Origin: Pseudomonadota bacterium
Lineage (GTDB): Bacteria > Pseudomonadota > Alphaproteobacteria > SHVZ01
Assembly: GCA_016195085.1 (NCBI GenBank)
Contig: JACQAG010000054.1
Location: forward strand, 7,045-71,044
DNA length: 64,000 bases
Direction of reading: 5' to 3'
Shown here: piece after piece, positions 24,779-62,538 of the stretch
Layout: the number at the start of each line of letters is the position of its first letter
How positions within the stretch are numbered: the first letter of the stretch is position 1
Position numbers and translations under genes: made by a program
The notes under the pieces: generated by a model
Told to the model about the DNA's origin: nothing
The model's input: only the letters and a program-made list of their open reading frames with translations
The model's database searches: none

Positions 24779-24848
24779 GACGCTTCTCCTTCTCTAACCT
24801 TCGCGGGCCTCTCGGCCGCTCTCCAAATTTGAACCGTTGCGCTGAGTC

Positions 24849-25514: not shown

Positions 25515-25535
25515 GACTCTGTGTCCTTCGCGCTC

Positions 25536-27602: not shown

Positions 27603-27642
27603 GATGTCGTAGCCGTCTGTCTATTGTGGCAGCTCGAATGGA

Positions 27643-27658
27643 AGCAATTCGCAGGCCA
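27643..27658 (-). promoter_or_regulatory. sigma-54 (-24/-12) promoter for fliK-flgD-flgE
   Basis: Minus-strand TGGCCTGCGAATTGCT: GG-N10-GC spacing, TTGC at -12. The GC of the -12 element lies 41 nt upstream of the fliK ATG. Consistent with the FlbD activator encoded in the window. Confidence 0.55.
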
Positions 27659-27792
27659 GGTGCGATTTCGCGCAAAGTTGCGCGACCACAAGGGGTTATT
27701 CGGAAAAATCCGACACCGGAAAGGCTGGGATGACGCTGCGGGGCAGATTCTGCAGAGGTACCCCCGGCACATTTTGCCGGGCGCTGACCGGC

Positions 27793-29811: not shown

Positions 29812-29920
29812 AGCTATATCCCGCTGCGGCCCGAGATCCTCGATACTCGGCGCCTAGACTCCGCGTTGAGTGATATCAAATAAGGAGGACGCGTGCCAGG
29901 GCGCTGGGGTCCGTCGAGCC

Positions 29921-30910: not shown

Positions 30911-30960
30911 CGCGACGCCGAGACTATGCCGAGAAGCGCGACTCGCGCTACACCCGCGCG

Positions 30961-35291: not shown

Positions 35292-35325
35292 GTTCCGTGG
35301 CGGCAACGCCGGTGCTCGGCTATAG

Positions 35326-38498: not shown

Positions 38499-38646
38499 GG
38501 GCCCGGCCGCGTGCCGAGTGCGTTCCGTTGGCCCGGCCTTTCTGCTATAGCTCGACCTGACCGCAACACGAGCGCTGGTTCGATCCGGCTCCCGGCGAGC
38601 CCAATCGGCCGAGTTCGCCAATTCGTCCCAAAAGGGGCATCAATAT

Positions 38647-39531: not shown

Positions 39532-39548
39532 TCACCACCGGCTGACGC

Positions 39549-41426
39549 GTGCGGGAAGGGGCGGCCAGAGCGGCAATCGACACACTTCTCGCCGCTGCTT
39601 TGGCCGATCACCGCTCGGGACGACTTGCCGAAGCGGCGGCGGGCTACCAGGCGGTGCTGGCCCAATCCCCCGAGCATGTCGACGCACTGCATCTCCTCGG
39701 ACAGATCGCGCGCGATCAGGGCCTTCTCGACGCCGCCTCGCACTTGATCGGACGCGCGGTCGAGCGCGATCCGAGCTTCGCCGAGGCCCAAAACAGCTTG
39801 GGCACGGTGGTCAAGGCCAAAGGCGACCTCGTTCGGGCGATCGGGTGCTTTCAGACGGCGGTCCGTTTGCAGCCGAACTACGGGGTGGCGCTCAACAATC
39901 TGGGCAATGCGTGGATGGATTTGGGCGACCGTCCAACGGCCGCCGCCGCGATCGGCCGCGCCCTGGTGCTGGACCCGACCTACGCCGAGGCCCATGGCAA
40001 TCTCGGGAACGCCCTGCAACTGCAGGGCGAGGTCGACGAGGCGCAGCCGTGCTATCGGCGTGCGCTGGCGCTCACACCCGGCTCCGCCACGTCATGGAGC
40101 AACCTCGCCAGCCTCGACCAAGCGCTGGCCGAAGCCGAATCCGCCGAGCGGCGCTTCCGGCGGGCGCTGGCGATCAAGCCGGAGCCATGGCTACACAGCA
40201 ACCTGCTCTTTGCCATGTCCTATGATCCGGCGGTGACGTCGGAGCGTCTGTTCGCCGAGTACCGGCGCTGGGAGCAACGCCATGGGCGGCCCTGCTATGG
40301 GCGGATCCGTGCGTATGCCAACCCGCGCCAGCCCGATCGGCGCCTCAGGCTCGGCTACGTCTCCGCCGATTTCCGCGCGCATCCGGTCGGTTGGAACGTG
40401 CTGGGGCTGATCGAGCGGCATGATCGGGAGCGGTTCCAGGTCTTCTGCTACGGCGATGTTCTCCGGCCGGACCGTATTACCGAGCGCTTCGCCCAGCGGG
40501 CCGAGGTCTGGCGTGGCGTCACCGGCGTCGGAGACGAGGCGCTGGCCGAGCGCATACGCGCCGACGGGATCGATGTTCTCGTCATCCTCGCCGGTCACAC
40601 CGGCCGCAATCGACTGCGCGCGGCGGCCTTTAAGCCGGCCCCGGTGCAGGTGAGCTTTCACGATCTGTCGACGAGCGGCCTCGAGGTGATGGATGCGTGG
40701 CTGACCGATCCCAGCCTGCATCCGGCGGACACGCACGAGCGCTTCACCGAGAAATTGATCCGCTTGCCTTGCTTCTATTTGCATCAAGCTCCGGAGGACG
40801 CGCCGGAGCCGGGACCGGCGCCGGAGACCCGGAACGGGTTCATCACCTTCGGCTCGTGCAACAACACCGCAAAGCTCAATCGCGAGGTCCTGGCGCTGTG
40901 GTCCGATGTGCTCCGCGCTGTTCCAGGCTCTCGGTTGCTCTTCAAGTATCTCAACCGCTTCGCCGCTCCGGGACTGCGCCGGCGCATCGGCGAGACCATG
41001 GCGCGGCTCGGCATCGCTGCCTCTCGGCTGGAGTTCCTGCCCGGCGAGCTCGGCCGTGGCGAGCAGCTCGCCGTCTTGACCGGTGTCGACATCGCTCTCG
41101 ACCCATTTCCCTTCAGCGGATCGACCGCGACGTTTGAAGCGCTTTGGATGGGCGTGCCTGTCGTCTCGCTGGCAGGCGAACGGTTCCTCGGGCGGGTAGG
41201 GGGCTCGGTCCTGGCTCAAGTCGGTCTGTCCGACCTCGTCGGCGCGGATCGAGCGGCCTATGTGCGGATTGCCGCCGCGCTCGCCGGCGATCGCGGACGT
41301 CGCATGGAACTCCGCCAAGAGCTTCGCGGCCGGCTCGCTGTTTCGCCCCTTTGCGAGGCCGACGCCTATGCGCGTTCGGTCGAGGTGGCCTACCGCACAC
41401 TCTGGCAGACTTGGTGCCGGGGGTGA
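39549..41426 (+). CDS. TPR + GT41 FlmG-like glycosyltransferase (paralog 5)
   Basis: 625 aa, GTG start. ITFGSCNNTAKLN, VDIALDPFPFSGSTATFEALWMGVPVVSLAGE, SPLCEADAYARSVEVAYRTLW. Confidence 0.8.
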   Translation: MREGAARAAIDTLLAAALADHRSGRLAEAAAGYQAVLAQSPEHVDALHLLGQIARDQGLLDAASHLIGRAVERDPSFAEAQNSLGTVVKAKGDLVRAIGCFQTAVRLQPNYGVALNNLGNAWMDLGDRPTAAAAIGRALVLDPTYAEAHGNLGNALQLQGEVDEAQPCYRRALALTPGSATSWSNLASLDQALAEAESAERRFRRALAIKPEPWLHSNLLFAMSYDPAVTSERLFAEYRRWEQRHGRPCYGRIRAYANPRQPDRRLRLGYVSADFRAHPVGWNVLGLIERHDRERFQVFCYGDVLRPDRITERFAQRAEVWRGVTGVGDEALAERIRADGIDVLVILAGHTGRNRLRAAAFKPAPVQVSFHDLSTSGLEVMDAWLTDPSLHPADTHERFTEKLIRLPCFYLHQAPEDAPEPGPAPETRNGFITFGSCNNTAKLNREVLALWSDVLRAVPGSRLLFKYLNRFAAPGLRRRIGETMARLGIAASRLEFLPGELGRGEQLAVLTGVDIALDPFPFSGSTATFEALWMGVPVVSLAGERFLGRVGGSVLAQVGLSDLVGADRAAYVRIAAALAGDRGRRMELRQELRGRLAVSPLCEADAYARSVEVAYRTLWQTWCRG

Positions 41427-49925: not shown

Positions 49926-50918
49926 ATGTCGATTTTTACCGGCAAGAACGTGCTCGTCACCGGCGGCACCGGCCTCATCGGTCGCCCGTTGGTGGAAATG
50001 CTGCTTGCCGAGCGGGCGGCGGTGCGCGTCGCCTCGCTCGACGATCCATCACGGGTGGTGCCGGGGGCCGAGTTTCGTCGTCTCGACCTTACGGTGCTCG
50101 ACAATTGCCTCGAGGCTTGCCGCGACATCGATCATGTCTTTCATCTTGCCGGCATCAAAGGCTCGCCGGCAATGACGCATTCCCGGCCGGCCAGCTTCTT
50201 CTTCCCGACGATCTCGTTCAACACCAACATGATGGAGGCGGCGCGCCGGTGTGCCGTCGAGCGCTATCTCTTCACCTCCACCGTCGGCGTCTATTCCCCG
50301 GCGGAGGTGATGCACGAGGACGATGTCTGGCGGAGCTTCCCCTCGCCGAACGATCGCTTCGCCGGATGGGCGAAGCGCATGGGCGAGCTGCAGGCGGAGG
50401 CTTATGCGCTCGAATATGGCTGGGACAAGATCGGCATCGTGCGGCCGCCCAACGTCTATGGACCGTTCGACAACTTCGATCCCGAGGGCGGCATGGTCGT
50501 GCCCTCGCTCATTCGCCGCGCCGTCGACGGCGAGCGGCCGCTGACGGTCTGGGGCGACGGCACGCCGGTGCGCGACTTCATCCATGCCCGCGACGTGGCC
50601 CGCGGCATGCTGGTTGTGATGGAGAAGGGACTCGGCCCTCCGGTCAATCTCGGCTCCGGGACCGGAACCTCGATTCGCCGGCTGGTCGAGGTCGTGGTCG
50701 CCGCGCTGGGCGAGCCCTGCGAGGTCGCGTGGGATACCAGCAAGCCGGCAGGCGACCGCATGCGGGTGCTGGACGTCGCGCGCGCGCGCGCGATCGGCTT
50801 TGAGGCGGAGGTCTCGATCGAGGACGGTATCGCCGAGACCCTGGCTTGGTACCGAGCCAACCGCGCCGGTCTGCCCAAAAGGTACGACGTGTTCAAGGAT
50901 CAAGTCTTCCGGCCCTGA
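49926..50918 (+). CDS. NAD-dependent epimerase/dehydratase (SDR) family protein
   Basis: 330 aa. VLVTGGTGLIGRPL. Paralog of 29921-30910, sharing ...VRPPNVYGPFDNFDPEGGMVVPSLI. Confidence 0.8.
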   Translation: MSIFTGKNVLVTGGTGLIGRPLVEMLLAERAAVRVASLDDPSRVVPGAEFRRLDLTVLDNCLEACRDIDHVFHLAGIKGSPAMTHSRPASFFFPTISFNTNMMEAARRCAVERYLFTSTVGVYSPAEVMHEDDVWRSFPSPNDRFAGWAKRMGELQAEAYALEYGWDKIGIVRPPNVYGPFDNFDPEGGMVVPSLIRRAVDGERPLTVWGDGTPVRDFIHARDVARGMLVVMEKGLGPPVNLGSGTGTSIRRLVEVVVAALGEPCEVAWDTSKPAGDRMRVLDVARARAIGFEAEVSIEDGIAETLAWYRANRAGLPKRYDVFKDQVFRP

Positions 50919-51296: not shown

Positions 51297-52301
51297 CTAG
51301 TCGTCGACCTGCCCATCGGGCTCGTAGACGATGATGCGGCTGCCGGCGGCGCCGATCCCGACGGGGACGTGGATGAGCCGGCTCAAACGGTCGGTGACCG
51401 CCGCGCGCTTGCCGGGCTCGACGAGGAAAGCCATGAAGCCGCCGCCGCCGGCGCCGAGGAGCTTGCCGCCGGTGGCGCCAGCGGCCATCGCCGCCTCGTA
51501 GATCTCGTCGATATGCGCGTTGGACACGCTGTCGGCGAGCTCGCGCTTCAGCCGCCAGCCCTCGTGCAGGAGCCGGCCCAGCTCCGTCATCTTGCGCATC
51601 GGGTTCGTCAAGATCGCCTCGGCCTCGTCCACCATCTGGGTCATGGTGCGCAGCTGGGTGGCACGCTTGTCGAGATTGGCGATCTTCTCCCTGGCGATGT
51701 CGGTCGAATAGCGCGAAACGCCGGTGAAGAACAGCAGCAGCCCTTGCTCGAGCTCCTGGCGCTTCACGTCGGGGATGACGATCGGCCGCACCTCGAAGCG
51801 CCCGTCGGTGCCGAAATTGATGCGCGCGAGGCCGCCATAGGCGGCCCAGATCTGGTCCTGGCTGCCGACGCTCTCGCCGATGATTTCCTGCTCGATGCGG
51901 ATCGTCTCTTCCGCAAGCTTGCGCTTGGTGATCATCTTGCCTTGCAAGGCGAAGAGCGCGTTGAGCAGCCCGGCGGTGAAGGACGAGCTGGATCCGAGGC
52001 CGGAGCGCGCCGGCAGATCGCCATCATGGTGGATCTCGATGCCGGACTCGAACGGGTGCTCCTGCAGGACGGCGCGCACCGAGGGATGGACGATGTCGTC
52101 GATGGCCTTCACCAGCTCGATGCGGGCGTAGACGATCCGGTGCTTGTGCTCGAAGAACGGCGGCAGCGGCCTGACGGTGATGTAGCAGTATTTGTTGATG
52201 GCCGTTCCCAGCACGGCGCCCCCGTGCTCCCGGTACCATCTCGGATAGTCCGTACCGCCTCCGAACAGAGATACGCGGAACGGGGTGCGACTGATGATCA
52301 T
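51297..52301 (-). CDS. GHMP-family sugar kinase, HddA-like (D-glycero-D-manno-heptose 7-phosphate kinase-type)
   Basis: Start at MIISRTPFRVSLFGGGTDYP (ATGA overlap with upstream gene). GHMP motif PARSGLGSSSS. The ORF-track N-terminal extension is rejected. Confidence 0.7.
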   Translation of the reverse strand: MIISRTPFRVSLFGGGTDYPRWYREHGGAVLGTAINKYCYITVRPLPPFFEHKHRIVYARIELVKAIDDIVHPSVRAVLQEHPFESGIEIHHDGDLPARSGLGSSSSFTAGLLNALFALQGKMITKRKLAEETIRIEQEIIGESVGSQDQIWAAYGGLARINFGTDGRFEVRPIVIPDVKRQELEQGLLLFFTGVSRYSTDIAREKIANLDKRATQLRTMTQMVDEAEAILTNPMRKMTELGRLLHEGWRLKRELADSVSNAHIDEIYEAAMAAGATGGKLLGAGGGGFMAFLVEPGKRAAVTDRLSRLIHVPVGIGAAGSRIIVYEPDGQVDD

Positions 52302-53041
52302 GAGTCCTCGCCGACCGGACGCCGGGATTCCCGGAAGAACGCGGTCGCTCCCGACAGGCTTTCGGGCGTGCCGATGTCGATGAATGCCCCCTGGCGCACC
52401 ACCGCATGTAGCGCACTTGGCTGGAGCTTTTCCAGGAAATCCCGCTCGAGCGACGGACCATCGCTGCCGGCCAGGCGATCCAGCGCCTGCCGTCCGAAGC
52501 AGTACAGCCCGGCATTGATGAGAGCGGGGCCCGCGCTGGACGGATCCTTCTCGACGAAGCGCTCGACATTGCCCTGGCGGCCCACGATCACGCGGCCGTA
52601 GCGTCTGGCGTCGGCGACCTCCACGCACAGCATCGAGGCTTCGGCGCCGCTCTTTTGATGCTCGCTCACCACACCCGCCAGCTCGACCTCGACGGCGCTG
52701 TCGCCATTCAACACCAGCACCGGATCGGAATGGAGCTGCTTCATGGCGAATCTGAGCGCGCCAGCGGTTCCCAGCGGCGCCGGCTCGACCACGGGGATGA
52801 CGGACAGGCGATCCGGCGCTCTGCCGCTCAGATGCGCCAGAACACGCTCGGCCAGGTGGCCGAGGCAGAGCACGACCCGTTCGAGCCCGGCTGCTTCGAG
52901 CCGGACGAGCAACAAATCGAGAAAGGTGGTGCCACCGATCGGCGCCAGGACTTTCGGTGTGCTGCCGAGCACGCCCGCGATGCGGGTGCCCTGGCCCCCG
53001 GCGAGCACCACCGCGTCGATCTTGGCTAAGGTCCCGGGCAT
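52298..53041 (-). CDS. sugar-1-phosphate nucleotidyltransferase, HddC-like (guanylyltransferase-type)
   Basis: Start MPGTLAKIDAVVLAGGQGTRI (G-x-G-T-R nucleotidyltransferase motif). Immediately upstream of the GHMP kinase, as in hddC-hddA pairs. Confidence 0.7.
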   Translation of the reverse strand: MPGTLAKIDAVVLAGGQGTRIAGVLGSTPKVLAPIGGTTFLDLLLVRLEAAGLERVVLCLGHLAERVLAHLSGRAPDRLSVIPVVEPAPLGTAGALRFAMKQLHSDPVLVLNGDSAVEVELAGVVSEHQKSGAEASMLCVEVADARRYGRVIVGRQGNVERFVEKDPSSAGPALINAGLYCFGRQALDRLAGSDGPSLERDFLEKLQPSALHAVVRQGAFIDIGTPESLSGATAFFRESRRPVGEDS

Positions 53042-53075: not shown

Positions 53076-54029
53076 TCACGCGGCGCGGCGGACGGTCTCA
53101 CGATACCAGCCGTGAGTCCGTCCGAGACCCGTGTCGAGATCGGTCCGGGGTTTCCAGCCCATGGCGGCCAGGCGCGAGCCTTCGAGGCGTTTCAGCGGCA
53201 TGCCGTCGGGCTTGTCGGCGAGGTATCGGAATTCGCCATGATAGCCGATCACGGCGGCGATGCGGCTCGCGAGCTCGGCGATCGACACGTCCTCGCCCAG
53301 GCCGAGATTGATGACGCGCTCATTGCTGTATCGTTCCATGAGGAAGACGAGGCCGTCGGCGGCATCGTCGACGTAGAGGAACTCCCGCCTTGGCGTGCCC
53401 GTGCCCCAGATCTCCACCGGACCGCCGGACGACGTCGCCGCATCGACCTTGCGGATCAGCGCCGGCACGACATGGCTGGAGCCGAGATCGAAGTTGTCGC
53501 CGGGACCGTAGAGGTTGGTCGGAATGACGGCGATGAAATCCTTGCCATGCTGGCGGCGATAGGCCTGGCAGAGCTTGATGCCGGCGATCTTGGCCACCGC
53601 ATACCACTCATTCGTCGGCTCGAGCGGACCAGTGAGCAGCGCCTCCTCACGCATGGGCTGGGCGCAGAGCCTCGGATAGACGCAAGATGAACCGAGGAAC
53701 ATCAGCTTGGCGACCCCAGCCTTGGCCGCAGCATGGATGACGTTCGCCTCGATCGCCAGGTTGTCGTAGAGAAACTCCGCCGGCCGGCTGTCATTGGCGA
53801 GGATGCCGCCGACGACGGCGGCGGCGAGAATGATCGCGTCGGGCCGCATCTCGGCGAGCCATGCCTCGACCGCCGCCTGCTGCCTCAAATCGAGCGCCGC
53901 CCGCTCGACCGTCAAGACCGTCGCGCCGTCGGCCGCCAGCCGGCGCGCCAGCGCCGCGCCGACCATGCCCTTGTGTCCGGCGACCCAGACGCGCTTGTGG
54001 GCGAGGGGGAACAACGTGCCTGCCGCCAT
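53076..54029 (-). CDS. fcl: GDP-L-fucose synthase-like epimerase/reductase (Fcl/WcaG; possibly ColC-type)
   Basis: 317 aa. KRVWVAGHKGMVGAAL Fcl N-terminus, conserved S-x-YA-x-AK catalytic region (NEWYAVAKIAG). Confidence 0.8.
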   Translation of the reverse strand: MAAGTLFPLAHKRVWVAGHKGMVGAALARRLAADGATVLTVERAALDLRQQAAVEAWLAEMRPDAIILAAAVVGGILANDSRPAEFLYDNLAIEANVIHAAAKAGVAKLMFLGSSCVYPRLCAQPMREEALLTGPLEPTNEWYAVAKIAGIKLCQAYRRQHGKDFIAVIPTNLYGPGDNFDLGSSHVVPALIRKVDAATSSGGPVEIWGTGTPRREFLYVDDAADGLVFLMERYSNERVINLGLGEDVSIAELASRIAAVIGYHGEFRYLADKPDGMPLKRLEGSRLAAMGWKPRTDLDTGLGRTHGWYRETVRRAA

Positions 54030-54039: not shown

Positions 54040-54984
54040 TCAGACGTTCGAGTACACCGAGTTCTGCAGCATGGTGTAGCCCTTGATCATCTCCTTGATG
54101 CCGTCGTCGAGGCTGTATTTCGGCCGGAAGCCAGTCTGCTCGATCTTGGCGTTGGAGACGATGTAGTCGCGCTTGTCCGGATCTTCACCGATTGGCGCCT
54201 CGAGAAAGACGAACTTGGGCAGATGCGTGCGAATGCGCTCGCACAGCTCCAGCTTCGACAAATTCGCATCCGACAGGCCGACATTATAGGCCTGGTCGCG
54301 CATCTCCTCGAAATTGGCGAGCCCGTGCAGGAAGGTGCGGGCGACGTCGCGGACGTGGATAAAGTTGCGCTTGAAGTGCGGCTCGAACAGCACCACCGCG
54401 CGGTCGTTGAGGGCGCGATAGACGAAGTCATTGACCAGGAGGTCGATACGCATGCGCGGGCTCATGCCGAACACAGTGGCGAGCCGGAAGCTGATGGCGT
54501 TCCCGTGCTCGAGCGCGATCGCCTCCGCCTCGACCTTGGTACGGCCATAGAGGGAGATGGGGTTGAGCGAGTCGTTCTCGGTGATCGCCTTGCCCTTCTG
54601 GCCGATGCCATAGCCGGAATTGGTGATCGGCATCAGCAGGCGCTGGCCGCGGCTCATCAGCTTCGTCAGGCTGGCGATGGCGTCGCGGTTGACGCTGACG
54701 GCACCGATCTTGTCGCGGTCGCAAAGCGGGGCGCCAACCAAGGCGGCGAGCGGAATTACCACGTCGGCCTGCTTCAGGAGCGGCTTCAGGGTCGCCTCGT
54801 CGCGCGCATCGCCGCGGACCACCGAAAAGTTCGGATCGGCGCACACGTGGTTGAGCGAATTCTGCTTGAACAGGAAATTATCGATCACGGCGACTCGATG
54901 GCCGTCGGCCAGGAGTGCCGGCACCAGCGTGGATCCGAGATAGCCGGCGCCGCCGGTCACGACGATCGAGTAGGTCTGAGCCAT
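54040..54984 (-). CDS. NAD(P)-dependent sugar epimerase/reductase (short SDR, extended type)
   Basis: 314 aa. IVVTGGAGYLGS, YxxxK (LYGRTKVEAE). Possibly the 4-reductase or 4,6-dehydratase of the pathway; function not resolved. Confidence 0.7.
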   Translation of the reverse strand: MAQTYSIVVTGGAGYLGSTLVPALLADGHRVAVIDNFLFKQNSLNHVCADPNFSVVRGDARDEATLKPLLKQADVVIPLAALVGAPLCDRDKIGAVSVNRDAIASLTKLMSRGQRLLMPITNSGYGIGQKGKAITENDSLNPISLYGRTKVEAEAIALEHGNAISFRLATVFGMSPRMRIDLLVNDFVYRALNDRAVVLFEPHFKRNFIHVRDVARTFLHGLANFEEMRDQAYNVGLSDANLSKLELCERIRTHLPKFVFLEAPIGEDPDKRDYIVSNAKIEQTGFRPKYSLDDGIKEMIKGYTMLQNSVYSNV

Positions 54985-55047: not shown

Positions 55048-56226
55048 TCAATTGCAGGTGCGGTCGAGCACGTGGTGCAGGCGTTCGATCTGCGCCGTGA
55101 GGTCGGTCGGATGGTTGCCGACGAAGAAGCCGTGGTCGTGAGCGGTATCCGCGTTCGGCGTCGACCCGCCCACGACCTCGTAGTCGAAATACTTGATGGC
55201 GGGATGCCTGAGGAAATTGCCGCCGGTGATGATGCGGAAGCCGATATCGGCTTCCTTGAGCGCGGCGAACACCCGCTCGCGCGCGATGTTGCGCTCGGGG
55301 TTGAGGATGATGGTGAAGGAGAAGGCGGAGCTCTTGCCGTTCTCGCGCTGGATGATGAAGCGGGGATCCTTGCCCAGGAGCTGGTGAAACAGCGCCATGT
55401 TCCGGCGCCGCTGCACGGTCATTCCCGGCAGCTTCTTCAGCTGCTCCACGCCGATCGCTCCCGAAAGCTCGATCGGCCGCACATTGTAGCCGGGCATGAT
55501 GAACTTATAGGCTTCGTAGAAGTCGCTTCCCGAACGGCGATAGACCGGGCTGTCGGGCGGCAGATCGCGGGTCCAGCCGTGGTTGCGGATGACACGCATG
55601 AGATGCGCGAGCTCCGTATCGTCGGTGATCACCATCCCGCCTTCCATGGTCGAGATGTGGTGGGAGAAGAAGGTGCTGTGCGTACCGACATCGCCGAAGG
55701 TGCCAGCCTTGCGGCCCGCCAGCTCGGCATCCATGGACTCGCAATTGTCTTCCATGAAGAACAGGCCCTGCGCGTCGGCGAAGCGCCGCATGGCGTCGAG
55801 CGCAGCCGGATTCCCGAGGATCGAGACGGCAAGGATCATGCGCGTGCGGGCCCCAAGCGCGGCCTCGAGCTTGGAGACATCCATGTTGAGGGTCTCGAGC
55901 TCGACATCGACGAACTTCAGCTTGAGGCCGTATTGCTGCAGGGGATGATAGGTGGTGCTCCAGGAAATGGCGGGCACGATCACCTCGTCGCCGCGCTGGA
56001 GAGGTCTGTCCTTCTTGTGGAAGAAGGCCGCGACCGCCACCAGGTTGGCCGAGGATCCGGAGTTCACCATGACCGCATGCTTGGCGCCGAAATAGGCGGC
56101 GAACGCCTCCTCGAAGGCGCGCACATTCGGACCCATGGTGAACTGTCCCGACGCGATCACACGGTTGATCGCCTCGATCTCCTCCTGGCCCCAGGTCGGG
56201 GTGGCGAGCTCGTAGAACATCCTCAC
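55048..56226 (-). CDS. DegT/DnrJ/EryC1-family PLP enzyme with His replacing the Schiff-base Lys: ColD/E1-type NDP-4-keto-6-deoxyhexose 3-dehydratase
   Basis: 392 aa. FFSHHISTMEGG, where aminotransferases of this family have SFH..K.I...EGG; the His sits at the Lys position, as in ColD (GDP-4-keto-6-deoxy-mannose 3-dehydratase). No Fe-S Cys cluster, so ColD-like rather than E1. Confidence 0.7.
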   Translation of the reverse strand: MRMFYELATPTWGQEEIEAINRVIASGQFTMGPNVRAFEEAFAAYFGAKHAVMVNSGSSANLVAVAAFFHKKDRPLQRGDEVIVPAISWSTTYHPLQQYGLKLKFVDVELETLNMDVSKLEAALGARTRMILAVSILGNPAALDAMRRFADAQGLFFMEDNCESMDAELAGRKAGTFGDVGTHSTFFSHHISTMEGGMVITDDTELAHLMRVIRNHGWTRDLPPDSPVYRRSGSDFYEAYKFIMPGYNVRPIELSGAIGVEQLKKLPGMTVQRRRNMALFHQLLGKDPRFIIQRENGKSSAFSFTIILNPERNIARERVFAALKEADIGFRIITGGNFLRHPAIKYFDYEVVGGSTPNADTAHDHGFFVGNHPTDLTAQIERLHHVLDRTCN

Positions 56227-56260: not shown

Positions 56261-57334
56261 TCAGAAGGGTCCGCGGAACTGGCTCTGGTAAGCGAGCTTG
56301 GCGCGCTCCGGATCGGGCCGCCAGGATTTGTCCTTCGGCTTGACCATGCGGTGTGCCGTCTCGGCGATCGTGCCGGGATTAGGGTAATAGAGCGCTTCCA
56401 GCGCCGGCGTCGTCGGGCAGGTCGTCGGCATGAAGCCCATGCGTTTGACGGCGATCCCGGCCTCCGACCCTACCTCCTCGAAGACCCGGGCGACGATTTC
56501 AGCCGAGGCCCCGCCGCAGGTCCAGGCATTGTCGACGACCAGAAGGCGCTTCGTGCGACGCGCCGAGGCGATGATGGTGTCCACGTCGAGCGGCACCAGG
56601 CTGATGGGATCGATCACTTCGGCGCGAATGCCGACCTCGGCCAGGAGCTCGGCCGATCTGAGGCACTCGACCACCATGTTGGACACGCCGACCATGGTTA
56701 TGTCGTCGCCCTTCATTGCCACCCGCCCCTTGCCGAGCGGCACCGTGAAGGGCGCCTCAGGCGTATAGGCTTCGGTCGGATAGAGGAGGCGGTGCTCGAC
56801 GAAGATCGTCGGGTTGTCGTCTCGAATGGCTGCGATGAGGCAGCCCTTGGCGTCATGGGCGTTGGACGGTGCGACGACCTTGAGGCCCGGCACATGCATG
56901 AACATGGCATGCAGACCCTGGCTGTGCTGCGCGCCTTGGCCCCAGGATTTGCCGATCATGCTGCGCACCACCATCGGCACCTTGACCGAGCCGCCATACA
57001 TGTAATGAGCCTTGGCGGCCATGTTGATGAGCTGGTTCATGCACAGCATGAGGAAGTCCATGCGGATGTGCACATGGATCGGCCGCATGCCGGCCATCGC
57101 CGCGCCGATCGCCATGCCCGACATCGCGTCTTCGGAGAGCGGCGTGTTGAATACGCGATCGCGACCGAAGCGCTGCTGCAATCCGAGGGTCGAGCCTTGA
57201 ATGCCCTTGGGATCGTCCACGTCGAGCCCGAACAGGAAGACCGAAGGGTCCCGCTCCATTTCTTGGATCACCGCTTCCTTGAGCGCATCCACATAGCGCA
57301 GGATGCGGCCGGGATGCGCCGCTTCAGGAGGCAT
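56261..57334 (-). CDS. TPP-dependent 2-oxoacid dehydrogenase E1 beta subunit (transketolase-like C-terminal half)
   Basis: 357 aa, PDH/acetoin-dehydrogenase E1-beta-like throughout. No E2/E3 genes nearby. Confidence 0.85.
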   Translation of the reverse strand: MPPEAAHPGRILRYVDALKEAVIQEMERDPSVFLFGLDVDDPKGIQGSTLGLQQRFGRDRVFNTPLSEDAMSGMAIGAAMAGMRPIHVHIRMDFLMLCMNQLINMAAKAHYMYGGSVKVPMVVRSMIGKSWGQGAQHSQGLHAMFMHVPGLKVVAPSNAHDAKGCLIAAIRDDNPTIFVEHRLLYPTEAYTPEAPFTVPLGKGRVAMKGDDITMVGVSNMVVECLRSAELLAEVGIRAEVIDPISLVPLDVDTIIASARRTKRLLVVDNAWTCGGASAEIVARVFEEVGSEAGIAVKRMGFMPTTCPTTPALEALYYPNPGTIAETAHRMVKPKDKSWRPDPERAKLAYQSQFRGPF

Positions 57335-58331
57335 AGACCTGCTCCATCAGCTCGCGGGGCTCCGGGAACGGGCTCTCCTCGGCAAATCGGATCGCCTCCG
57401 CGACGAGCGTCTCGACCTCGCGATCGACGGCGGCGCGGGCTGTGGCATCGAGCGCTCGGCCGGCGCTCTCCACCTGATCGGTGCTGCGCCAGCGCTCGAG
57501 CTCGTCCTTGCCGCGATAGCCGATGTGGTAGTCCTCGCCGGGCCCGACATGCTCCTTCCAGCGGTAAACATGGGCCTCGATGAACACTGGACCGGAAGCG
57601 CCACTGCGCATGGCGGCGACGGCCTCCGCGGTCGCCGATCGGATGGCGAAGACGTCCCCGTCGGCGATCTTGTGCGCCGGGATGCCGAAGGTCTCGACGC
57701 GCTCGCAGAGCCGATCGGTCGCCCAACGCTTCGATTGTGGAGTGTGGATCGCGTAAAAATTGTTCTCGCAGACGAACAGCATCGGCAGGCGATGCAGGCT
57801 CGCGAAGTTGAGGGACTCGTAGAACACGCCCTCCTCGGTCGCCCCGTCGCCGAAGAAGGCGGCTACCACCTGTCCCTTGCCGCGGCGCTTGTAGGCGAGC
57901 GCGTAGCCCATGGCGATCGGCACGGTGGTTCCGACGACGGCGGAGGTGCCCAGCACGTTGGCCGCCATGTCGACGAGATGCATGGAGCCGCCCTTGCCGC
58001 GGGCGCAGCCGGTCGCCTTGCCATAGAGCTCGGCGAACATGCCCTTGAGGTTGCCGCCCTTGGCTAGATAGGTGGCGTGGCCCCGATAGGTGCCCGATAC
58101 GGCATCATCGGCGCGGAGCGCATCGCACACTCCCACCGCCACGGACTCCTGGCCGATCGATAGATGCACCGGGCTTTTGATCTTGTCCGTGGGGTAGATG
58201 CGCGCCACTTCCTCTTCGGCGCGCCGGATCAGCCGCAACGACCGGTAGATGCGCGTGAGGTCGGCTTTGCTGAGATCGGAAAGGTTGGGTTTCGCCACGC
58301 CATAGCCTCGTCGCCTGCCGCCGGCGACCAT
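57324..58331 (-). CDS. TPP-dependent 2-oxoacid dehydrogenase E1 alpha subunit
   Basis: TPP-binding GDG-x-N region (FFGDGATEEGVFYESLNFASLHRLPMLFVCENN) and YRGHATYLAKGG. Start placed at ATG 58331; the ORF-track 58460 start overlaps the upstream gene. Confidence 0.75.
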   Translation of the reverse strand: MVAGGRRRGYGVAKPNLSDLSKADLTRIYRSLRLIRRAEEEVARIYPTDKIKSPVHLSIGQESVAVGVCDALRADDAVSGTYRGHATYLAKGGNLKGMFAELYGKATGCARGKGGSMHLVDMAANVLGTSAVVGTTVPIAMGYALAYKRRGKGQVVAAFFGDGATEEGVFYESLNFASLHRLPMLFVCENNFYAIHTPQSKRWATDRLCERVETFGIPAHKIADGDVFAIRSATAEAVAAMRSGASGPVFIEAHVYRWKEHVGPGEDYHIGYRGKDELERWRSTDQVESAGRALDATARAAVDREVETLVAEAIRFAEESPFPEPRELMEQVYAS

Positions 58332-58402: not shown

Positions 58403-60511
58403 TCAAGGCCCCTCGAGCGTGATCGCCCGGGCCGGAGCGCCGCTTTGATAGATACGCCACGCCTCGGTGTAGGCTCGCTCGAGATTGCGCGCGAGGCGGG
58501 CTGAGTCGAATAGCGGGTGGGTCTCGCGGTTGCGTCTGAGCTGCGCCTTCAGCCGGGCCATCTCGACCGGAGATTGGGCGAGCTCGACCGCCATCGCCTC
58601 GAAGCCGGCGACCGTCGTGGCGGACAGCTCCTCCATGCCGATGCCCGCATTGAGGCTGGCGCCGACGCGGGCGGGCATGGTCTCGCCGATGAGGGTGAGC
58701 ACCGGTAGCCCGGCCCAGAGCGCATCCAGGCTGGTCACGCCCGAGGTGTAGAGGAAGGTGTCGATGAACAGGTCGGCGAGGCTGAGCCGCGCCAGGTGGT
58801 CGGCCTTGGCCGGTGGCGGCGGCGTGAAGACCAGCCGTTCCGGCTCGATTCCGGCGGCGGCGGCAGCGCGTCTGAGATTGCGCGCGCCGACCGGGTCGTA
58901 GTCATTGAGCCACAGGACCGCGTTCGGGATCCGCGCCAGGATACGCATCCACGCGGCAAAGGCCGTGGGGTCGATCTTGTAGAAGCCACCGAAATTCGCC
59001 AACACGAAGCCGTGCGCAGGCAGACCCCATTTGCCCCGATCGGACTCCGGCATCGCCATGTCGAGGGGCGGGGCAGGGTAGTAGCTGGGCGGCAACCTGA
59101 TCAGCTTTTCGGAATAGAAGGCATCGATTCCCGGTCCGAACAAGACGCTGTCGCCGATGACGTAGTCCACGAAGTCGGTGCCGGTCGGCCCGACATAGCA
59201 ATGGTGCAGCATTTGCAGCGGCGCAATCCGCTGGCTCATGACCGAAAGCGACAAGAGCCCGTCATTGCCGGAGAGATAGCCGTCAAGGTCGACCAGGATA
59301 TCGAGCCCATCGGCGGCGATCGCGCGTTGAAAGGCTTCACGGTCCGCGCCATCGACCGCGCGGAAGGCATGCGCCGCCGCGGCTAGCCGCTCTTGCAGGC
59401 GATCGTCGGCTCGAGTCGAGTAGAGGTAGACCTCGAAGGCGTCGCGATCATGCGCGGCGACGATGGGCAGCTGTGCCGCGCCGATGTGGTGGTCCCAAAG
59501 CTTGCTCGACAGGTATCCCAGCCGAATCCGCCCTCGGCCGGTCCTGCGATCCGCCGGCCATGCCGGTTCGCGTGGCGCAAATCGGTGCCGGGCGAAGTGG
59601 CGCGCGGCCTCGAAGAGCGTCCTGCTGTCCACCGCCAGAAACAGGAACAGGACGGGATTGACCAGGAAGCGGGCACTGTCCTCTTCGATCGCCGCCCGCA
59701 CGAGCTCGCCCACGCGCCTTGTGTAGTCGCGACGGGTCGGCCAATCCGCCTGATTCAGCATGTGGAAATAGTAGATATGCTCGTGGAATTGCGGGTTGCC
59801 AAAGTCGAGATCGACCGCCCGCTGCATCAAGGCGACACCCCGTTCCTTCTCGCCCAGCAGGTAGAGATTTCGGCCGGCGAGGAACTGCAGCTCCGGGATC
59901 TCGGATCCCAGCATCGCCACCCGCTGCATGTGCGCGATCGCCGACGCGCGCTGCGCCAGATTGAAGGCGCTCTGACCAAGAGCCACCTGCGGAAGCATGG
60001 CTGCGGGGGCGAGCGCAAGCTGCCGGCGGCCGGCGGTGACCGCCATCCGGTCCTCCCTCAGGGCGGTTGCCACGCGGGCGATTTCGCCCTCCAGCGTCGC
60101 GCTGTCTGGGTGGAGCGTGCGTGCGCGAACGAGAATCGCAAGGGTGGCTCTCGCGCGGTTCGAGGCGATACTAAGCGAGCCCAGATGCTCGATGGCTTCC
60201 AGCGAGGCCAGGGAAACCGCAAGCCCGCGCCAATAGCCGGCAATGGCGCTGCCTGCATCGCCGCGGCGTTCGGCGTCGAGTGCCAGCTGGAATCGGCTTG
60301 GCGAGTCCGCGGGCGCAAGCGCAAGGACCCGCCTCAGCGCCGCGCAGGCTTCAGCGCTCTGGCCGCGGGTCGTGTATGCCGAGGCGAGGTGCCGCCAACG
60401 CCGCAATAGCCCGGCATCGTCCGTTGTCTCTGCCAACCAGCCTCCCAGCGAGTTGCCTTGAAGATATCGGCAACCCCACGGCCTGTGCCACAATTGCTGT
60501 TGTTGACCCAT
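58403..60511 (-). CDS. divergent TPR + GT41-like glycosyltransferase (paralog 10)
   Basis: 702 aa. TPR-like N-terminus. C-terminal FVLANFGGFYKIDPTAF, LFIDTFLYTSGVTSLDALWAGLPVLTLIGE, HPLFDSARLARNLERAYTEAW. More divergent than the other paralogs. First gene of the minus-strand sugar operon. Confidence 0.65.
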   Translation of the reverse strand: MGQQQQLWHRPWGCRYLQGNSLGGWLAETTDDAGLLRRWRHLASAYTTRGQSAEACAALRRVLALAPADSPSRFQLALDAERRGDAGSAIAGYWRGLAVSLASLEAIEHLGSLSIASNRARATLAILVRARTLHPDSATLEGEIARVATALREDRMAVTAGRRQLALAPAAMLPQVALGQSAFNLAQRASAIAHMQRVAMLGSEIPELQFLAGRNLYLLGEKERGVALMQRAVDLDFGNPQFHEHIYYFHMLNQADWPTRRDYTRRVGELVRAAIEEDSARFLVNPVLFLFLAVDSRTLFEAARHFARHRFAPREPAWPADRRTGRGRIRLGYLSSKLWDHHIGAAQLPIVAAHDRDAFEVYLYSTRADDRLQERLAAAAHAFRAVDGADREAFQRAIAADGLDILVDLDGYLSGNDGLLSLSVMSQRIAPLQMLHHCYVGPTGTDFVDYVIGDSVLFGPGIDAFYSEKLIRLPPSYYPAPPLDMAMPESDRGKWGLPAHGFVLANFGGFYKIDPTAFAAWMRILARIPNAVLWLNDYDPVGARNLRRAAAAAGIEPERLVFTPPPPAKADHLARLSLADLFIDTFLYTSGVTSLDALWAGLPVLTLIGETMPARVGASLNAGIGMEELSATTVAGFEAMAVELAQSPVEMARLKAQLRRNRETHPLFDSARLARNLERAYTEAWRIYQSGAPARAITLEGP

Positions 60512-60576
60512 TGCAATCTACGCTATCGACGGCTCCGTCCCGCGCGGCTGCCACTCGCGAGGCGGAACTAACGCCT

Positions 60577-62538
60577 ATGGACGTCATCGATCGATCGATC
60601 AAAGCGGCGCTGCGCCTCTACAACGACGGCAACCCGGATGCGGCCGAGCAAGTATGCAGGGGCATTCTCAAGGTCGAGCCGACCAATGCCGAGGTTCTGC
60701 ATCTCCTGGCGCAGTTCGACTGTCGCCTCGGGCGGGCGCGGCGCGCGGCCGGAATCGCCCGCCAGGCGATCGCGCTGGAGCCGGCACGGGCAAAATTTCT
60801 GCTGACCCTAGGGACCGCCGAACAGGAGATGCGCAACGAGAAGGCCGCTGGCGACGGCTACCGGCGCTCCATCGCCGTCGATATCGAGCACGCTGAAGCC
60901 CATCTCAATTTAGGCGCGTTGCAGCCGATTCGAAGCAAGAGCGCACGCGCCTGCTGGCGACGGGCGGCGGTGTTGCGCCCTGATCTTCCCGAGGTCCACA
61001 ACAATTTGGCGGGCAGGGCGCTCGCCAGCGCCAAGGTCGTCGAAGCCGAGCGGCGTTTCGGCCGCGCTCTGTCGCTGCGGCCAAGCTACCCGCAAGCGTG
61101 GAATGGCCTCGCCAGCGCGGCAGGAGCGACCGGAGCCATGCATCGCTCGTTGCTGGCGGCGCGCCGGGCGCTGGCTCTGGCGCCGGCCTTTGCCGAAGCC
61201 ATGAACAATCAAGGCACCATCCTGGTGGCGGCGGGCGCGGTTGGACCTGCCGTGCGGTGGCTTTCGCGAGCGGTGGCGACTGCGCCGGGTTATGCCGATG
61301 CCGGCAGCAATTTGCTCTTTGCCTTTGCCTACGACGACTCGATCGCCCTCGCGGCGCTGTTCGCCGCGCAGCTCGCCTGGGCGAAGCGACACGCGCCCGT
61401 GCTACGGCCGCTCGAGACACGCCACGGCAATGCGCCGGAACCGGAGCGTCGCCTGCGCGTGGGCTATGTCTCGGCGGATTTTCGCGAGCACCCGATTGCT
61501 TGGAATGTCGAGGGTTTGTTCGAGCACCACGATCGGCGGAGCGTCGAGCTCCATCTCTATTCCTCGACCGTCAGCGCGGATCGAACGACGGAGCGGCTGC
61601 GCCGCCTGGCCGAGCACTGGCACGATGCAACCGACCTCGGAGCGGCGGATATCGCCGAGGCAGTGCGCCGCGACGGCATCGACGTGCTGGTGAGTCTGGC
61701 GCCGCACACCGCCTCCAATCGGCCGCTGTTCATGGCCTACCGGCCAGCGCCGGTCCAGGTGGCTTTCCACGGCATCGGCTCGACCGGCCTCGAGGCAGTC
61801 TCCTATTGGATCACCGATCCGGTCCTGCACCCCGAGGACAGCCGGGAAGCCTTCACCGAGGAGCTCGTGCGCCTGCCGTGCTTCTATCTGCATCGCCCGC
61901 CCGAGGACGCCCCCGAGCCGAGCGGCGTGCCCAGCCTCGCCTTGGGGGCGATAACCTTCGGTTCCTGCAACAACCCGGCGAAGCTCTCGCCGGCGGCCGT
62001 CAGGCTGTGGGCAGAGGTGCTGCGAGCCTTGCCCGCCAGCCGCCTGCTGGTGAAATACGTCGATCGATTCCGCGATCCCTTGGCCGCGCGGCGTCTGCTC
62101 GAGGCATTCGCGGCATACGGCATTGGCGAGGAGCGCATTGTCCGCTCGGGCGGTCTCTTGGATCGTCGCGGCCAGCTCGAGCTGCTGAGCAGCGTCGACA
62201 TTGCCCTCGACCCCGTGCCGTTCAACGGCTCGACCACCAGTTTCGAGGCGCTGTGGATGGGAGTGCCCCTGGTGACCTTGCTGGGGGATCGGTTTGTCGG
62301 GCGGGTCGGAGCGAGCTTGCTCCAGCAAGTCGGGTTGGCAGACCTCATCGCCCGGACGCCGGCGGACTACGTCGCGATCGCCGCTCGGCTCGCGGGCGAT
62401 GGACAGCGTCTGAAGGCGTTGCGTGCCTCGCTCAGGCAGCGAGTCGCCGCATCGCCGCTATGCGATGCGCCGGCGCATGCGCGTTCGATCGACGCGGCCT
62501 ACCGCATGATGTGGCGGCGATGGTGCCGCCGTCCGTGA
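60577..62538 (+). CDS. TPR + GT41 FlmG-like glycosyltransferase (paralog 11)
   Basis: Start ATG 60577 (MDVIDRSIKAAL...); the ORF-track 60280 start overlaps the divergent gene. ITFGSCNNPAKLS, VDIALDPVPFNGSTTSFEALWMGVPLVTLLGD. Confidence 0.8.
   Translation: MDVIDRSIKAALRLYNDGNPDAAEQVCRGILKVEPTNAEVLHLLAQFDCRLGRARRAAGIARQAIALEPARAKFLLTLGTAEQEMRNEKAAGDGYRRSIAVDIEHAEAHLNLGALQPIRSKSARACWRRAAVLRPDLPEVHNNLAGRALASAKVVEAERRFGRALSLRPSYPQAWNGLASAAGATGAMHRSLLAARRALALAPAFAEAMNNQGTILVAAGAVGPAVRWLSRAVATAPGYADAGSNLLFAFAYDDSIALAALFAAQLAWAKRHAPVLRPLETRHGNAPEPERRLRVGYVSADFREHPIAWNVEGLFEHHDRRSVELHLYSSTVSADRTTERLRRLAEHWHDATDLGAADIAEAVRRDGIDVLVSLAPHTASNRPLFMAYRPAPVQVAFHGIGSTGLEAVSYWITDPVLHPEDSREAFTEELVRLPCFYLHRPPEDAPEPSGVPSLALGAITFGSCNNPAKLSPAAVRLWAEVLRALPASRLLVKYVDRFRDPLAARRLLEAFAAYGIGEERIVRSGGLLDRRGQLELLSSVDIALDPVPFNGSTTSFEALWMGVPLVTLLGDRFVGRVGASLLQQVGLADLIARTPADYVAIAARLAGDGQRLKALRASLRQRVAASPLCDAPAHARSIDAAYRMMWRRWCRRP

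Follow-up and report, generated by a model that had tools for sequence, protein, structure and literature searches.

Two adjacent genes in the window, by which we mean the whole stretch of 64 kb analysed here, probably, if by no means certainly, encode a ThDP-dependent carboligase of the E1 (alphaKADH2) type that needs no E2 and acts in a GDP-heptose modification pathway. They code for an E1 alpha and an E1 beta subunit and lie within a sugar operon, the genes of which are given below with their positions in the window.

58403-60511, minus strand: TPR and GT41 glycosyltransferase, with which the operon begins (Pfam Glyco_transf_41, 2e-60)
57324-58331, minus strand: E1 alpha, ThDP-binding, 335 aa (Pfam E1_dh, 1.5e-62)
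56261-57334, minus strand: E1 beta, 357 aa (Pfam Transket_pyr, 2.9e-38, and Transketolase_C, 7.9e-28)
55048-56226, minus strand: ColD-type PMP/PLP-dependent sugar 3-dehydratase (PDB 2gms, ColD, 5.4e-116, full length)
54040-54984, minus strand: Cj1427-type SDR, homologue of a GDP-heptose C4-dehydrogenase (PDB 6vo6/6vo8, 3e-106)
53076-54029, minus strand: GDP-L-fucose-synthase-type epimerase/reductase, Fcl-like (NCBIfam Fcl, 460 bits against a cut-off of 500; PDB Fcl, 1.7e-104)
52298-53041, minus strand: sugar-1-phosphate nucleotidyltransferase, HddC/ManC-like (Pfam NTP_transferase, 8e-31; NCBIfam HddC, 99.6 bits)
51297-52301, minus strand: GHMP kinase, HddA-like, heptose-7-phosphate 1-kinase type (Pfam GHMP_kinases_N and _C; best match NCBIfam HddA, 144 bits)

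As an earlier note on this DNA had described, the pair sits between the GT41 gene, 71 bp upstream of E1 alpha, and the ColD homologue, approximately 34 to 40 bp downstream of E1 beta. NCBI calls the GT41 gene at 58403-60436 (677 aa), the ColD homologue from a start at 56220 and the nucleotidyltransferase as a protein of 247 aa; products of 335 and 357 aa for the pair are likewise present in NCBI gene calls (GCA_016178915.1, JACOSK010000068.1). The alpha start is slightly uncertain, with a GTG at 58298, preceded by GAGG, as the alternative. The alpha stop and the beta start overlap by 11 bp, and the sole terminator-like site on the minus strand (60155-60137) falls inside the GT41 coding sequence, with none between the operon genes, in support of the pair being co-operonic with the sugar genes.

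Both subunits have retained their TPP and catalytic residues. The best solved structure for E1 alpha is human PDH E1 alpha (2.3e-48), with which its motifs align: the ThDP/Mg motif GDG-x(25-30)-NN-x-Y is present as FFGDGATEEG...VCENNFYAI (YGDGAANQG...ICENNRYGM in the human protein) and is kept, like the other alpha motifs, across 67 family members. The alpha active-site histidine lies in WKEHVGPG, of which KEHV aligns with the position of human H263. In E1 beta, the glutamate of TPLSED and the histidine of AQHSQ align with E59 and H128 in both the human and the G. stearothermophilus enzyme (1ni4_B and 1w85_B). Each of these three residues is at least 95% conserved in the family alignment (71 beta and 67 alpha sequences). 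By the residue roles of PDH E1, we take the beta glutamate to activate ThDP and the two histidines to be active-site residues. The two sets of motifs and the adjacent alpha and beta genes place the pair among the heterotetrameric (alpha2beta2) 2-oxoacid dehydrogenase E1 enzymes. It does not have the single-chain architecture of YerE-like enzymes (TPP_enzyme_N, M and C), being made of two chains with E1_dh and Transket_pyr/Transketolase_C domains and matching TPP_enzyme_C only below threshold (21.5 bits). At the point where a canonical E1 beta ends, the beta subunit carries a conserved, family-specific C-terminal extension of approximately 25 aa that terminates in F-R/K-G-P-F; in canonical enzymes, it is with this end of E1 beta that the E2 binding domain makes contact.

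The clade to which the pair belongs is a discrete one, identities being 68% to 90% within it and at most 48% outside. Its 80 species representatives come from at least 5 phyla, with carriers that include Alphaproteobacteria, Acidobacteriota, Myxococcales, Chloroflexota and Opitutia, and are 68% to 83% identical in E1 beta. E1 alpha is adjacent to E1 beta in 77 of these 80 loci, and in 75 the next gene downstream of E1 beta is the ColD homologue; such synteny with the 3-dehydratase ties the pair strongly to the product of that enzyme. The Cj1427-like SDR is found at 67 and the GHMP kinase at 53 of the 80 loci.

The earlier note had called the pair an orphan, and our searches agree. Using E. coli AceF (full length, catalytic and lipoyl domains) and Lpd as queries, tblastn detected no E2 or E3 gene in the 64-kb window, nor did E. 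coli AceF and Lpd, the only queries used there, detect one in the 80 homologous loci (1.19 Mb in total). Pfam scans gave no lipoyl or 2-oxoacid_dh domain among the larger ORFs of the window. Moreover, E1 alpha scores 295.5 bits against a cut-off of 393.85 for true PDH E1 alpha (NCBIfam TIGR03182), and E1 beta 288.3 bits against 321 for PDH E1 beta (NCBIfam NF006667). We have therefore discarded a housekeeping PDH or acetoin complex as the origin of the pair. An E1 with a housekeeping or catabolic role (PDH, acetoin or branched-chain) that lies in the sugar operon by chance, with its E2 and E3 encoded elsewhere, would fit with PDH E1 subunits being the nearest solved relatives, with retention of the alpha histidine linked to reductive acetylation and with the labels of PDH or acetoin E1 that homologues bear in public annotations. 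It is nevertheless very improbable given the E2/E3 searches with the E. coli queries and the scores of both subunits below the PDH equivalog cut-offs. Against it are also the invariance of the sugar-gene synteny across phyla, the conserved beta extension at an end that in canonical enzymes meets the E2 binding domain, and the distance of the E2-linked homologues among plasmid hits, which are at most 45% identical.

To which sugar would an E1-type carboligase add its unit? The earlier note had assumed an acceptor from an E1/E3-type route, with yersiniose following the same logic. This probably does not hold, given the Cj1427-type SDR, the ColD-type dehydratase, the HddA/HddC-like genes and the missing 4,6-dehydratase; the branch of yersiniose is moreover added by YerE, which belongs to another ThDP family. 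The dehydratase retains histidine at the position of catalytic His188 (FFSHHISTMEGG compared to FYSHHIATMEGG), a position that was located via the entries 3b8x and 2r0t, which are the mutants H188N and H188K. With a histidine in place of the Schiff-base lysine and full-length similarity to ColD, it is of the ColD type, and an RfbH/E1-type dehydrase in need of an E3 reductase was rejected (2e-51 only, compared to 5e-116 for ColD). The SDR aligns over residues 6 to 313 with 6vo6/6vo8, shares TNSGYG...Y-x3-K with them and lacks the dehydratase glutamate; from sequence and genomic context, 6vo6 was assigned to Cj1427 of the C. jejuni capsule heptose locus. Full-length homology and the lack of a 4,6-dehydratase Asp/Glu after the catalytic threonine mark the window protein as Cj1427-type. 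It was thus rejected as the missing 4,6-dehydratase (TNS instead of TDE or TSE; Cj1427 homologue at 3e-106), as were the SDRs at 49926-50918, 29921-30910 and 53076-54029 as Gmd-type enzymes, all three being Fcl-type. There is no Gmd-type 4,6-dehydratase in the window and none is conserved in the 80 loci, where the extra SDRs are all Fcl-type.

In C. jejuni, Cj1427 is the GDP-heptose C4-dehydrogenase, and together with a ColD-like C3-dehydratase it yields GDP-D-glycero-3-deoxy-4-keto-heptose in vitro (PMC10680097). Because the operon combines a Cj1427-type SDR and a ColD-type dehydratase with HddA/HddC-like genes and no 4,6-dehydratase, GDP-3-deoxy-4-keto-heptose is the likely acceptor, which would make the product a C9 sugar. 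Support for the activation of a heptose comes from the best matches, HddA and HddC, from the fusion of the orthologous nucleotidyltransferase function to a GmhB heptose-bisphosphate phosphatase in A. lipoferum 4B and from SIS and HAD genes at some loci. A sugar other than a heptose is nevertheless conceivable, as kinase and nucleotidyltransferase score far under the equivalog cut-offs of HddA and HddC. One such acceptor would be GDP-4-keto-3,6-dideoxyhexose, made from GDP-mannose by the ColD homologue and a Gmd encoded elsewhere, and the product a yersiniose-like branched octose. Consistent with this, the dehydratase matches a hexose enzyme, E. coli ColD, over its full length (5e-116), the Fcl-like gene stands near to genuine GDP-fucose synthases, and mannose-1-phosphate guanylyltransferase is a further match of the nucleotidyltransferase (149 bits). 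We regard a hexose acceptor as unlikely, since no Gmd-type 4,6-dehydratase accompanies the cassette, the invariant SDR is of the Cj1427 type, which produces a 4-keto-heptose without 6-deoxygenation, GDP-mannose needs no GHMP kinase, and related cassettes contain GmhB, SIS and HldE-like genes. The earlier suggestion of a two-carbon branch in this sugar pathway hence stands in part: the orphan pair, its place in the operon and the dehydratase synteny support it, but a 3,6-dideoxyhexose is an improbable acceptor.

In the preferred heptose pathway, the Cj1427-like SDR would oxidise C4 of GDP-heptose and the ColD-like enzyme would remove the 3-hydroxyl to give GDP-3-deoxy-4-keto-heptose, two reactions with in vitro precedent in the C. 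jejuni homologues. The carboligation that we infer to follow would have pyruvate as the donor: the E1 pair would decarboxylate it, and the resulting hydroxyethylidene-ThDP carbanion would attack the C4 ketone, turning C4 into a tertiary alcohol that bears an acetyl branch (4-C-acetyl) and so yielding a nine-carbon branched sugar nucleotide. The branch ketone might then be reduced by the Fcl-like enzyme or by an NADH-loaded Cj1427-like enzyme, or be processed otherwise, and the neighbouring GT41/TPR transferases would use the GDP-sugar on a target that we likewise infer. The Fcl-like enzyme may serve in this reduction or in a colitose-like side route; an Fcl-type gene is present in only about 19 to 22 of the 80 cassettes. 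The core cassette has no obvious dedicated branch ketoreductase.

A carboligase acting on the same sugar, but with another donor (hydroxypyruvate or 2-oxobutyrate) or at another carbonyl (before 3-deoxygenation, or in the side chain), would produce a different branch or a chain extension. We see only a small chance of this. The donor cannot be read from sequence, and YerE relatives take C4 to C8 keto acids (PMC9306805); characterised E1-type branching enzymes, however, are reportedly all limited to C2 units from pyruvate (PMC12247030). In A. argentinense Az39, a split transketolase, which would move glycolaldehyde rather than acetaldehyde, occupies the place of the E1 pair, while the Cj1427-like SDR, the HddA-like kinase and a radical SAM gene are kept. 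As to the carbonyl, the ColD product is the favoured acceptor, given that the ColD homologue is directly adjacent in 75 of 80 loci, and against this can be set the distant E1 beta homologues (44% to 45%) of S. magneticus pDMC1 and A. oryzae. These lie in heptose-type cassettes, which speaks for the preferred pathway, with SDR, DegT, radical SAM and NUDIX genes, in which the DegT proteins are only 27% to 29% identical to the window ColD homologue. The ColD-type histidine is kept in the S. magneticus DegT, and neither A. oryzae DegT has a recognisable motif; the SDRs are 57% (S. magneticus) and only 31% (A. oryzae) identical to that of the window. An L-2-hydroxyglutarate oxidase gene adjoins the S. 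magneticus cassette and matches the by-product of Cj1427, a hint that alpha-ketoglutarate may be used, so that tightly bound NADH is recycled by a ping-pong mechanism. As a general cassette member, this gene (lhgO) was dismissed, since it occurs in S. magneticus and in none of the 80 loci.

The precedent named in the earlier note, AviB1/AviB2 of avilamycin biosynthesis, is genuine. The accepted enzymes for C2 branching in antibiotic sugars are E1-type pairs (PMC12247030, PMC4753412), and the related KbDH-alpha/beta adds in vitro support, as it joins pyruvate to cyclic ketones (PMC12247030). AviB1/AviB2, Pau11/Pau12 (paulomycin), KbDH (kibdelomycin) and the aldgamycin and kosinostatin enzymes are all E1 pairs without E2/E3 in NDP-sugar pathways, and for the window pair we propose the reaction of this class, i.e., transfer of a pyruvate C2 unit onto a ring ketone to give a tertiary alcohol. 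By analogy, C2 branching is supported by AviB1/B2, Pau11/12 and KbDH, and also by the replacement of the pair with a split transketolase in Az39. The likeness is one of genomic context: here, too, an orphan pair lies beside deoxy-keto-sugar genes. The pair differs from the class in its Gram-negative or environmental host, in a surface or flagellar glycan instead of an antibiotic as the destination, and in a GDP-linked, heptose-derived substrate of which the acceptor form would come from a Cj1427-type oxidase and a ColD-type dehydratase. The nearest Streptomyces plasmid homologues are 46% to 48% identical; that of S. griseofuscus was rejected as a stand-in for AviB2, as it is located in a PKS/NRPS cluster and not in a sugar cluster, and the S. 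albogriseolus record is unannotated.

YerE/YerF, ErwE and MyGE also combine ThDP-dependent acyl-anion addition at the C4 ketone of a 3-deoxy-4-keto NDP-sugar with subsequent ketoreduction, for a surface polysaccharide of Gram-negative bacteria. YerE, however, is a single-chain flavoenzyme of the decarboxylase/acetolactate-synthase type that acts on CDP-3,6-dideoxy-4-keto-glucose, whereas the window pair is a heterotetramer-type E1 with a GDP-linked sugar as its presumed substrate, making it a functional analogue and not a homologue. The C. jejuni GDP-heptose pathway (HddA, HddC, Cj1427, Cj1428 and the HS:5 C3-dehydratase) is mirrored here by homologues of its kinase, guanylyltransferase, C4-dehydrogenase, Fcl-type reductase and dehydratase, but has no ThDP enzyme. 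Furthermore, Cj1427 and the C3-dehydratase were there mixed from serotypes HS:2 and HS:5, while here the genes are naturally adjacent and joined to the E1 pair. With the colitose pathway (ColD/ColC), the operon shares a ColD homologue with the catalytic histidine and an Fcl/ColC-like epimerase-reductase; it differs in having no GDP-mannose 4,6-dehydratase and in the additional E1 pair, Cj1427-type SDR and GHMP kinase. Taken alone, the ColD-like and Fcl-like genes of the window would make up a complete colitose-type route, in which the E1 pair would have no necessary role in this genome.

Sugar-branching E1-type ThDP enzymes have so far been known only from actinomycete antibiotic pathways. A 2025 review assigns the branching of LPS sugars to YerE-like enzymes only, a family unrelated to the present pair, and in the literature that we searched, E1 pairs of O-antigen clusters gave no matches. 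The cassette joins such a pair to the recently characterised Cj1427/C3-dehydratase heptose chemistry. If our proposal is correct, a nine-carbon C-branched sugar that is so far undescribed is displayed by many bacteria of soil and fresh water, cultivable Azospirillum strains among them, and ketone carboligation by E1 enzymes would gain a defined natural substrate, of interest for preparing tertiary alcohols.

For caryose, a carbocyclic sugar of which the biosynthetic origin is stated to be unknown (PMC9092360), the proposal would likewise provide a route that is concrete and can be tested. A B12-binding radical SAM gene, with the C-C cyclases HpnJ and BchE as its best family matches, is located inside 25 of the 80 cassettes. 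That a caryose-type higher sugar with a 4,8-cyclo-3,9-dideoxy-nonose skeleton is made by a pathway with the cassette at its core is a speculative idea, and we doubt it at present. The E1 pair would form the C4-C8 bond, C8 and the C9 methyl being brought in as the acetyl group from pyruvate; the 3-deoxy position would be due to the ColD-type enzyme, and ring closure from C7 to the C8 ketone to the B12-binding radical SAM enzyme. The window operon has no radical SAM gene, and the branched nonose made there would therefore be open-chain or methylated; it might be used in flagellar glycosylation by GT41 enzymes that take the GDP-sugar. A link to bradyrhizose was rejected, since no photosynthetic Bradyrhizobium is among the 80 loci and the candidate cluster contains a dTDP-glucose 4,6-dehydratase (PMC4743980). 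It had come into question as a C10 sugar with a quaternary C4 and a fused carbocycle.

The earlier note had placed the sugar on a flagellar glycan. Flagellar genes are indeed adjacent to the operon, but the 64-kb window contains no flagellin gene, and in most other genomes the cassette is accompanied by GT2 or other glycan genes; a flagellar target is thus suggested by gene adjacency only. If it is correct, the bacterial TPR-GT41 protein glycosyltransferases found beside flagellar genes would have a wider donor range. In A. lipoferum 4B, a GT41 gene with a product 42% identical to that of the window also adjoins the cassette. A KedN5-type C-methyltransferase is encoded 25 kb from the window operon.

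The E1 alpha/beta pair proposed in the earlier note corresponds exactly to two minus-strand genes, according to both Pfam and the NCBI gene calls for the source contig (GCA_016178915.1, JACOSK010000068.1), which agree on both:

57324-58331, minus strand, E1 alpha (Pfam E1_dh, 1.5e-62)
56261-57334, minus strand, E1 beta (Transket_pyr, 2.9e-38; Transketolase_C, 7.9e-28)

They are genes 2 and 3 of a co-directional run in the order GT41, E1 alpha, E1 beta, DegT-like protein, SDR, Fcl-like protein, nucleotidyltransferase and GHMP kinase. Spacing ranges from overlaps (11 bp within the E1 pair, 4 bp between transferase and kinase) to a 71-bp gap, and no terminator-like site lies between these genes on the minus strand (the only one is inside the GT41 coding sequence), so the pair indeed belongs to the sugar operon. 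It also lacks E2/E3 partners nearby, as had been claimed. Searching by tblastn with E. coli Lpd and with AceF (the entire protein, its catalytic domain or its lipoyl domain) gave no match in the window and, across 1.19 Mb around 80 related loci, nothing but one marginal 47-residue FAD-motif match; Pfam scans of the window's larger ORFs found no lipoyl or 2-oxoacid_dh domain. Both subunits fall under the NCBIfam cut-offs for genuine PDH E1 subunits. The TPP and catalytic residues are all present: E1 alpha keeps the GDG...ENN-x-Y ThDP/Mg motif and the His aligned to human His263, E1 beta keeps a Glu ('TPLSED') and a His ('AQHSQ'), and conservation is at least 95% in 67-71 homologues. Judged from its residues, the pair looks fully competent as an enzyme.

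Homologues of E1 beta number in the thousands, the best 120 all being 73-90% identical. A species scan with one genome each returned 200 relatives, of which the best 80 (68-83% identity) were taken for locus analysis. These come from Alphaproteobacteria (Azospirillum, Niveispirillum, Elstera, Desertibaculum, Tagaea, Stellaceae, Xanthobacteraceae) and, beyond them, from Acidobacteriota, Myxococcales, Chloroflexota, Opitutia and one betaproteobacterium. Among plasmid records, three from Azospirillum are 73-74% identical and the next ones 48% or less, so the clade is discrete. E1 alpha adjoins E1 beta in 77 of the 80 loci, and a DegT-like gene is directly downstream of E1 beta in 75; nearby are the window's SDR type (67/80), a GHMP kinase (53/80), a nucleotidyltransferase (37/80) and an Fcl-like gene (22/80). 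Clustering of all neighbouring ORFs added a B12-binding radical SAM protein of approximately 507 aa (25 loci), a NUDIX hydrolase (13 loci) and, in a few, SIS and HAD proteins; it yielded no conserved 4,6-dehydratase. The locus is a conserved sugar-nucleotide cassette and not a metabolic dehydrogenase operon, and the system is widespread and uncharacterised, with carriers that can be cultured. GT41 is rare by the cassette (7/80), yet present in A. lipoferum 4B. There, on plasmid AZO_p6 (16460-25192), methylthioadenosine phosphorylase and mtnA (methionine salvage), two sulfotransferases and a phosphocholine cytidylyltransferase-family gene adjoin the cassette, which suggests more glycan decoration and salvage of by-products from SAM-using enzymes.

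The partner enzymes bear on the sugar substrate. The DegT-like protein is a full-length homologue of the sugar 3-dehydratase ColD (PDB 2gms, 5.4e-116) and keeps the catalytic His that stands in for the usual Lys; an RfbH/E1-type dehydrase is a far poorer match (2e-51). The conserved SDR matches PDB 6vo6/6vo8 over its whole length (3e-106), and all share a 'TNSGYG' motif without the acid/base residues of 4,6-dehydratases. We verified by sequence and genomic context that 6vo6 is Cj1427: it is a C. jejuni protein of 313 aa, encoded in the capsule heptose locus with an Fcl-type reductase on one side and a GHMP kinase, SIS and NTP-transferase on the other. Cj1427, a GDP-heptose C4-dehydrogenase, recycles its tightly bound NADH with alpha-ketoglutarate and, together with a ColD-like C3-dehydratase, produces GDP-D-glycero-3-deoxy-4-keto-heptose in vitro (PMC10680097). 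For the kinase and transferase, HddA and HddC are the best or near-best NCBIfam matches, and A. lipoferum 4B carries a fusion of the transferase with a GmhB-type heptose-1,7-bisphosphate phosphatase. The window's three other SDRs, considered as Gmd-type candidates, are all Fcl-type. Taken together, these identities predict a pathway that starts at GDP-heptose and gives a 3-deoxy-4-keto-heptose, not the 3,6-dideoxy-4-keto-hexose previously put forward as acceptor. The window's ColD and Fcl-like gene could alone form a colitose-like route; however, most cassettes have no Fcl-like gene, and it is E1 alpha, E1 beta, ColD and the SDR that stay linked.

With a heptose-derived acceptor, a role for the E1 pair as two-carbon branch donor holds in principle, while its substrate and the yersiniose analogy need correction, the dehydratase being of the ColD type. 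In yersiniose synthesis, YerE branches a 3-deoxy-4-keto NDP-sugar with pyruvate (PMC4753412, PMC9306805), the same acceptor class as the predicted cassette product. Two-carbon branching of antibiotic sugars is an accepted function of orphan E1 alpha/beta pairs (PMC4753412, PMC12247030); a 2025 review names them alphaKADH2 and includes AviB1/B2, Pau11/12 and the aldgamycin, kosinostatin and trioxacarcin enzymes, and KbDH-alpha/beta joins pyruvate to cyclic ketones in vitro (PMC12247030). AviB1/B2, Pau11/12 and KbDH resemble the window's pair in gene setting, and it is a candidate member of their clade. On the strength of the YerE acceptor class and these orphan pairs, we propose that the E1 pair would attach a pyruvate-derived acetyl group at C4 of GDP-3-deoxy-4-keto-heptose and thereby form a branched sugar with nine carbons. 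The Fcl-like enzyme might then reduce the branch ketone; alternatively, the NADH form of the Cj1427-like protein might do so, with the ketone taking the place of alpha-ketoglutarate. We infer the branching step, the pyruvate donor and the fate of the ketone by analogy. Orphan E1 branching itself is already known; new here is a variant in which it is tied to heptose-derived Cj1427/ColD chemistry.

On Streptomyces plasmids, the nearest homologues reach 46-48% identity; the one from S. griseofuscus, whose record is annotated, falls in a PKS/NRPS cluster, and for S. albogriseolus no annotation is given. E1 beta homologues of 44-45% identity occur on Solidesulfovibrio magneticus pDMC1 and an A. oryzae plasmid, beside heptose activation genes, SDR, DegT, radical SAM and NUDIX; SDR identity to that of the window is 57% in S. 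magneticus and only 31% in A. oryzae. The S. magneticus RS-1 cassette (24342-39663) ends with SIS and lhgO (L-2-hydroxyglutarate oxidase), which fits recycling of L-2-hydroxyglutarate from a Cj1427-type dehydrogenase; none of the 80 loci yielded an lhgO. Plasmid p5 of A. argentinense Az39 (8054-15017) keeps a Cj1427-like SDR (73% identical), an HddA-like kinase (62%) and the radical SAM gene, has neither E1 pair nor ColD, and carries a split transketolase pair at their site. Transketolase is a ThDP-dependent C2-transferase, and one ThDP enzyme looks to have been swapped for another. The distant E1 cassettes and the Az39 transketolase are independent observations that strengthen the link between a ThDP enzyme and this heptose chemistry. 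The Az39 locus also has a second cobalamin-dependent protein, and its radical SAM is HpnJ-like.

E1 beta carries a conserved extension of approximately 25 residues that begins where canonical E1 beta chains stop and ends F-R/K-G-P-F. This tail, ending F-[RKA]-G-P-[FY] (56261-56340 in the window), is at least 95% conserved in the clade. It recurs in the A. oryzae (44% identical) and S. griseofuscus (46%) homologues and may be a signature of many E2-independent E1 pairs. The S. magneticus homologue lacks it, as do the aligned PDH E1 beta chains of human and G. stearothermophilus.

The best family matches of the in-cassette radical SAM protein are the C-C cyclases HpnJ (172 bits) and BchE (149 bits), both far under cut-off. 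Five plasmid records matched it: the four closest (48-74%) are replicons with the E1 cassette or the Az39 transketolase variant, and the fifth, from S. carbinolicus, is weak (27%). Joining C7 to the acetyl carbonyl of a 3-deoxy, C4-acetylated heptose would give the caryose skeleton (4,8-cyclo-3,9-dideoxy-nonose), and caryose biosynthesis is stated to be unknown (PMC9092360). The window's operon has no HpnJ-like gene, the window's own radical SAM (27793-29853) being KedN5-like, a C-methyltransferase type, and we regard a cassette route to caryose-type sugars as improbable.

The window (67% G+C) has flagellar genes in its first 27 kb by Pfam scans (fliI, fliJ, flhA, flhF, a MinD/ParA-type ATPase, a sigma-54 activator, motA, fliN, fliH, fliG, fliF, flgE, flgD and fliK) and contains no flagellin gene. 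From gene position alone we infer a flagellar target for the sugar. At least 11 paralogous TPR-GT41 genes (OGT/SPINDLY-like; 20972-49881 and 58403-62538) lie among and after the flagellar genes, crowding around flgE/flgD/fliK and the sugar operon, an unusually big expansion of putative protein O-glycosyltransferases for a single locus. SPINDLY, a plant GT41 enzyme, is described as taking a GDP-sugar, which is suggestive beside these genes. The island also holds one GT1, several SDRs and two genes that may serve sugar methylation:

27793-29853, minus strand, KedN5-family B12-binding radical SAM protein, C-methyltransferase-like
38551-39531, plus strand, FkbM (Methyltransf_21) methyltransferase

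Methyltransf_21 also adjoins Cj1427 in one of two C. jejuni capsule contigs examined. A putative 788-aa ORF (8161-10527, minus strand, approximately 72% G+C), with no Pfam match, has flagellar export genes on one side and a glyoxalase-like gene on the other. Formate dehydrogenase/NADH-dehydrogenase-like genes (molybdopterin/Fe-S; Nuo51-type FMN subunit) at 2-2988, minus strand, appear unrelated to the glycan island.
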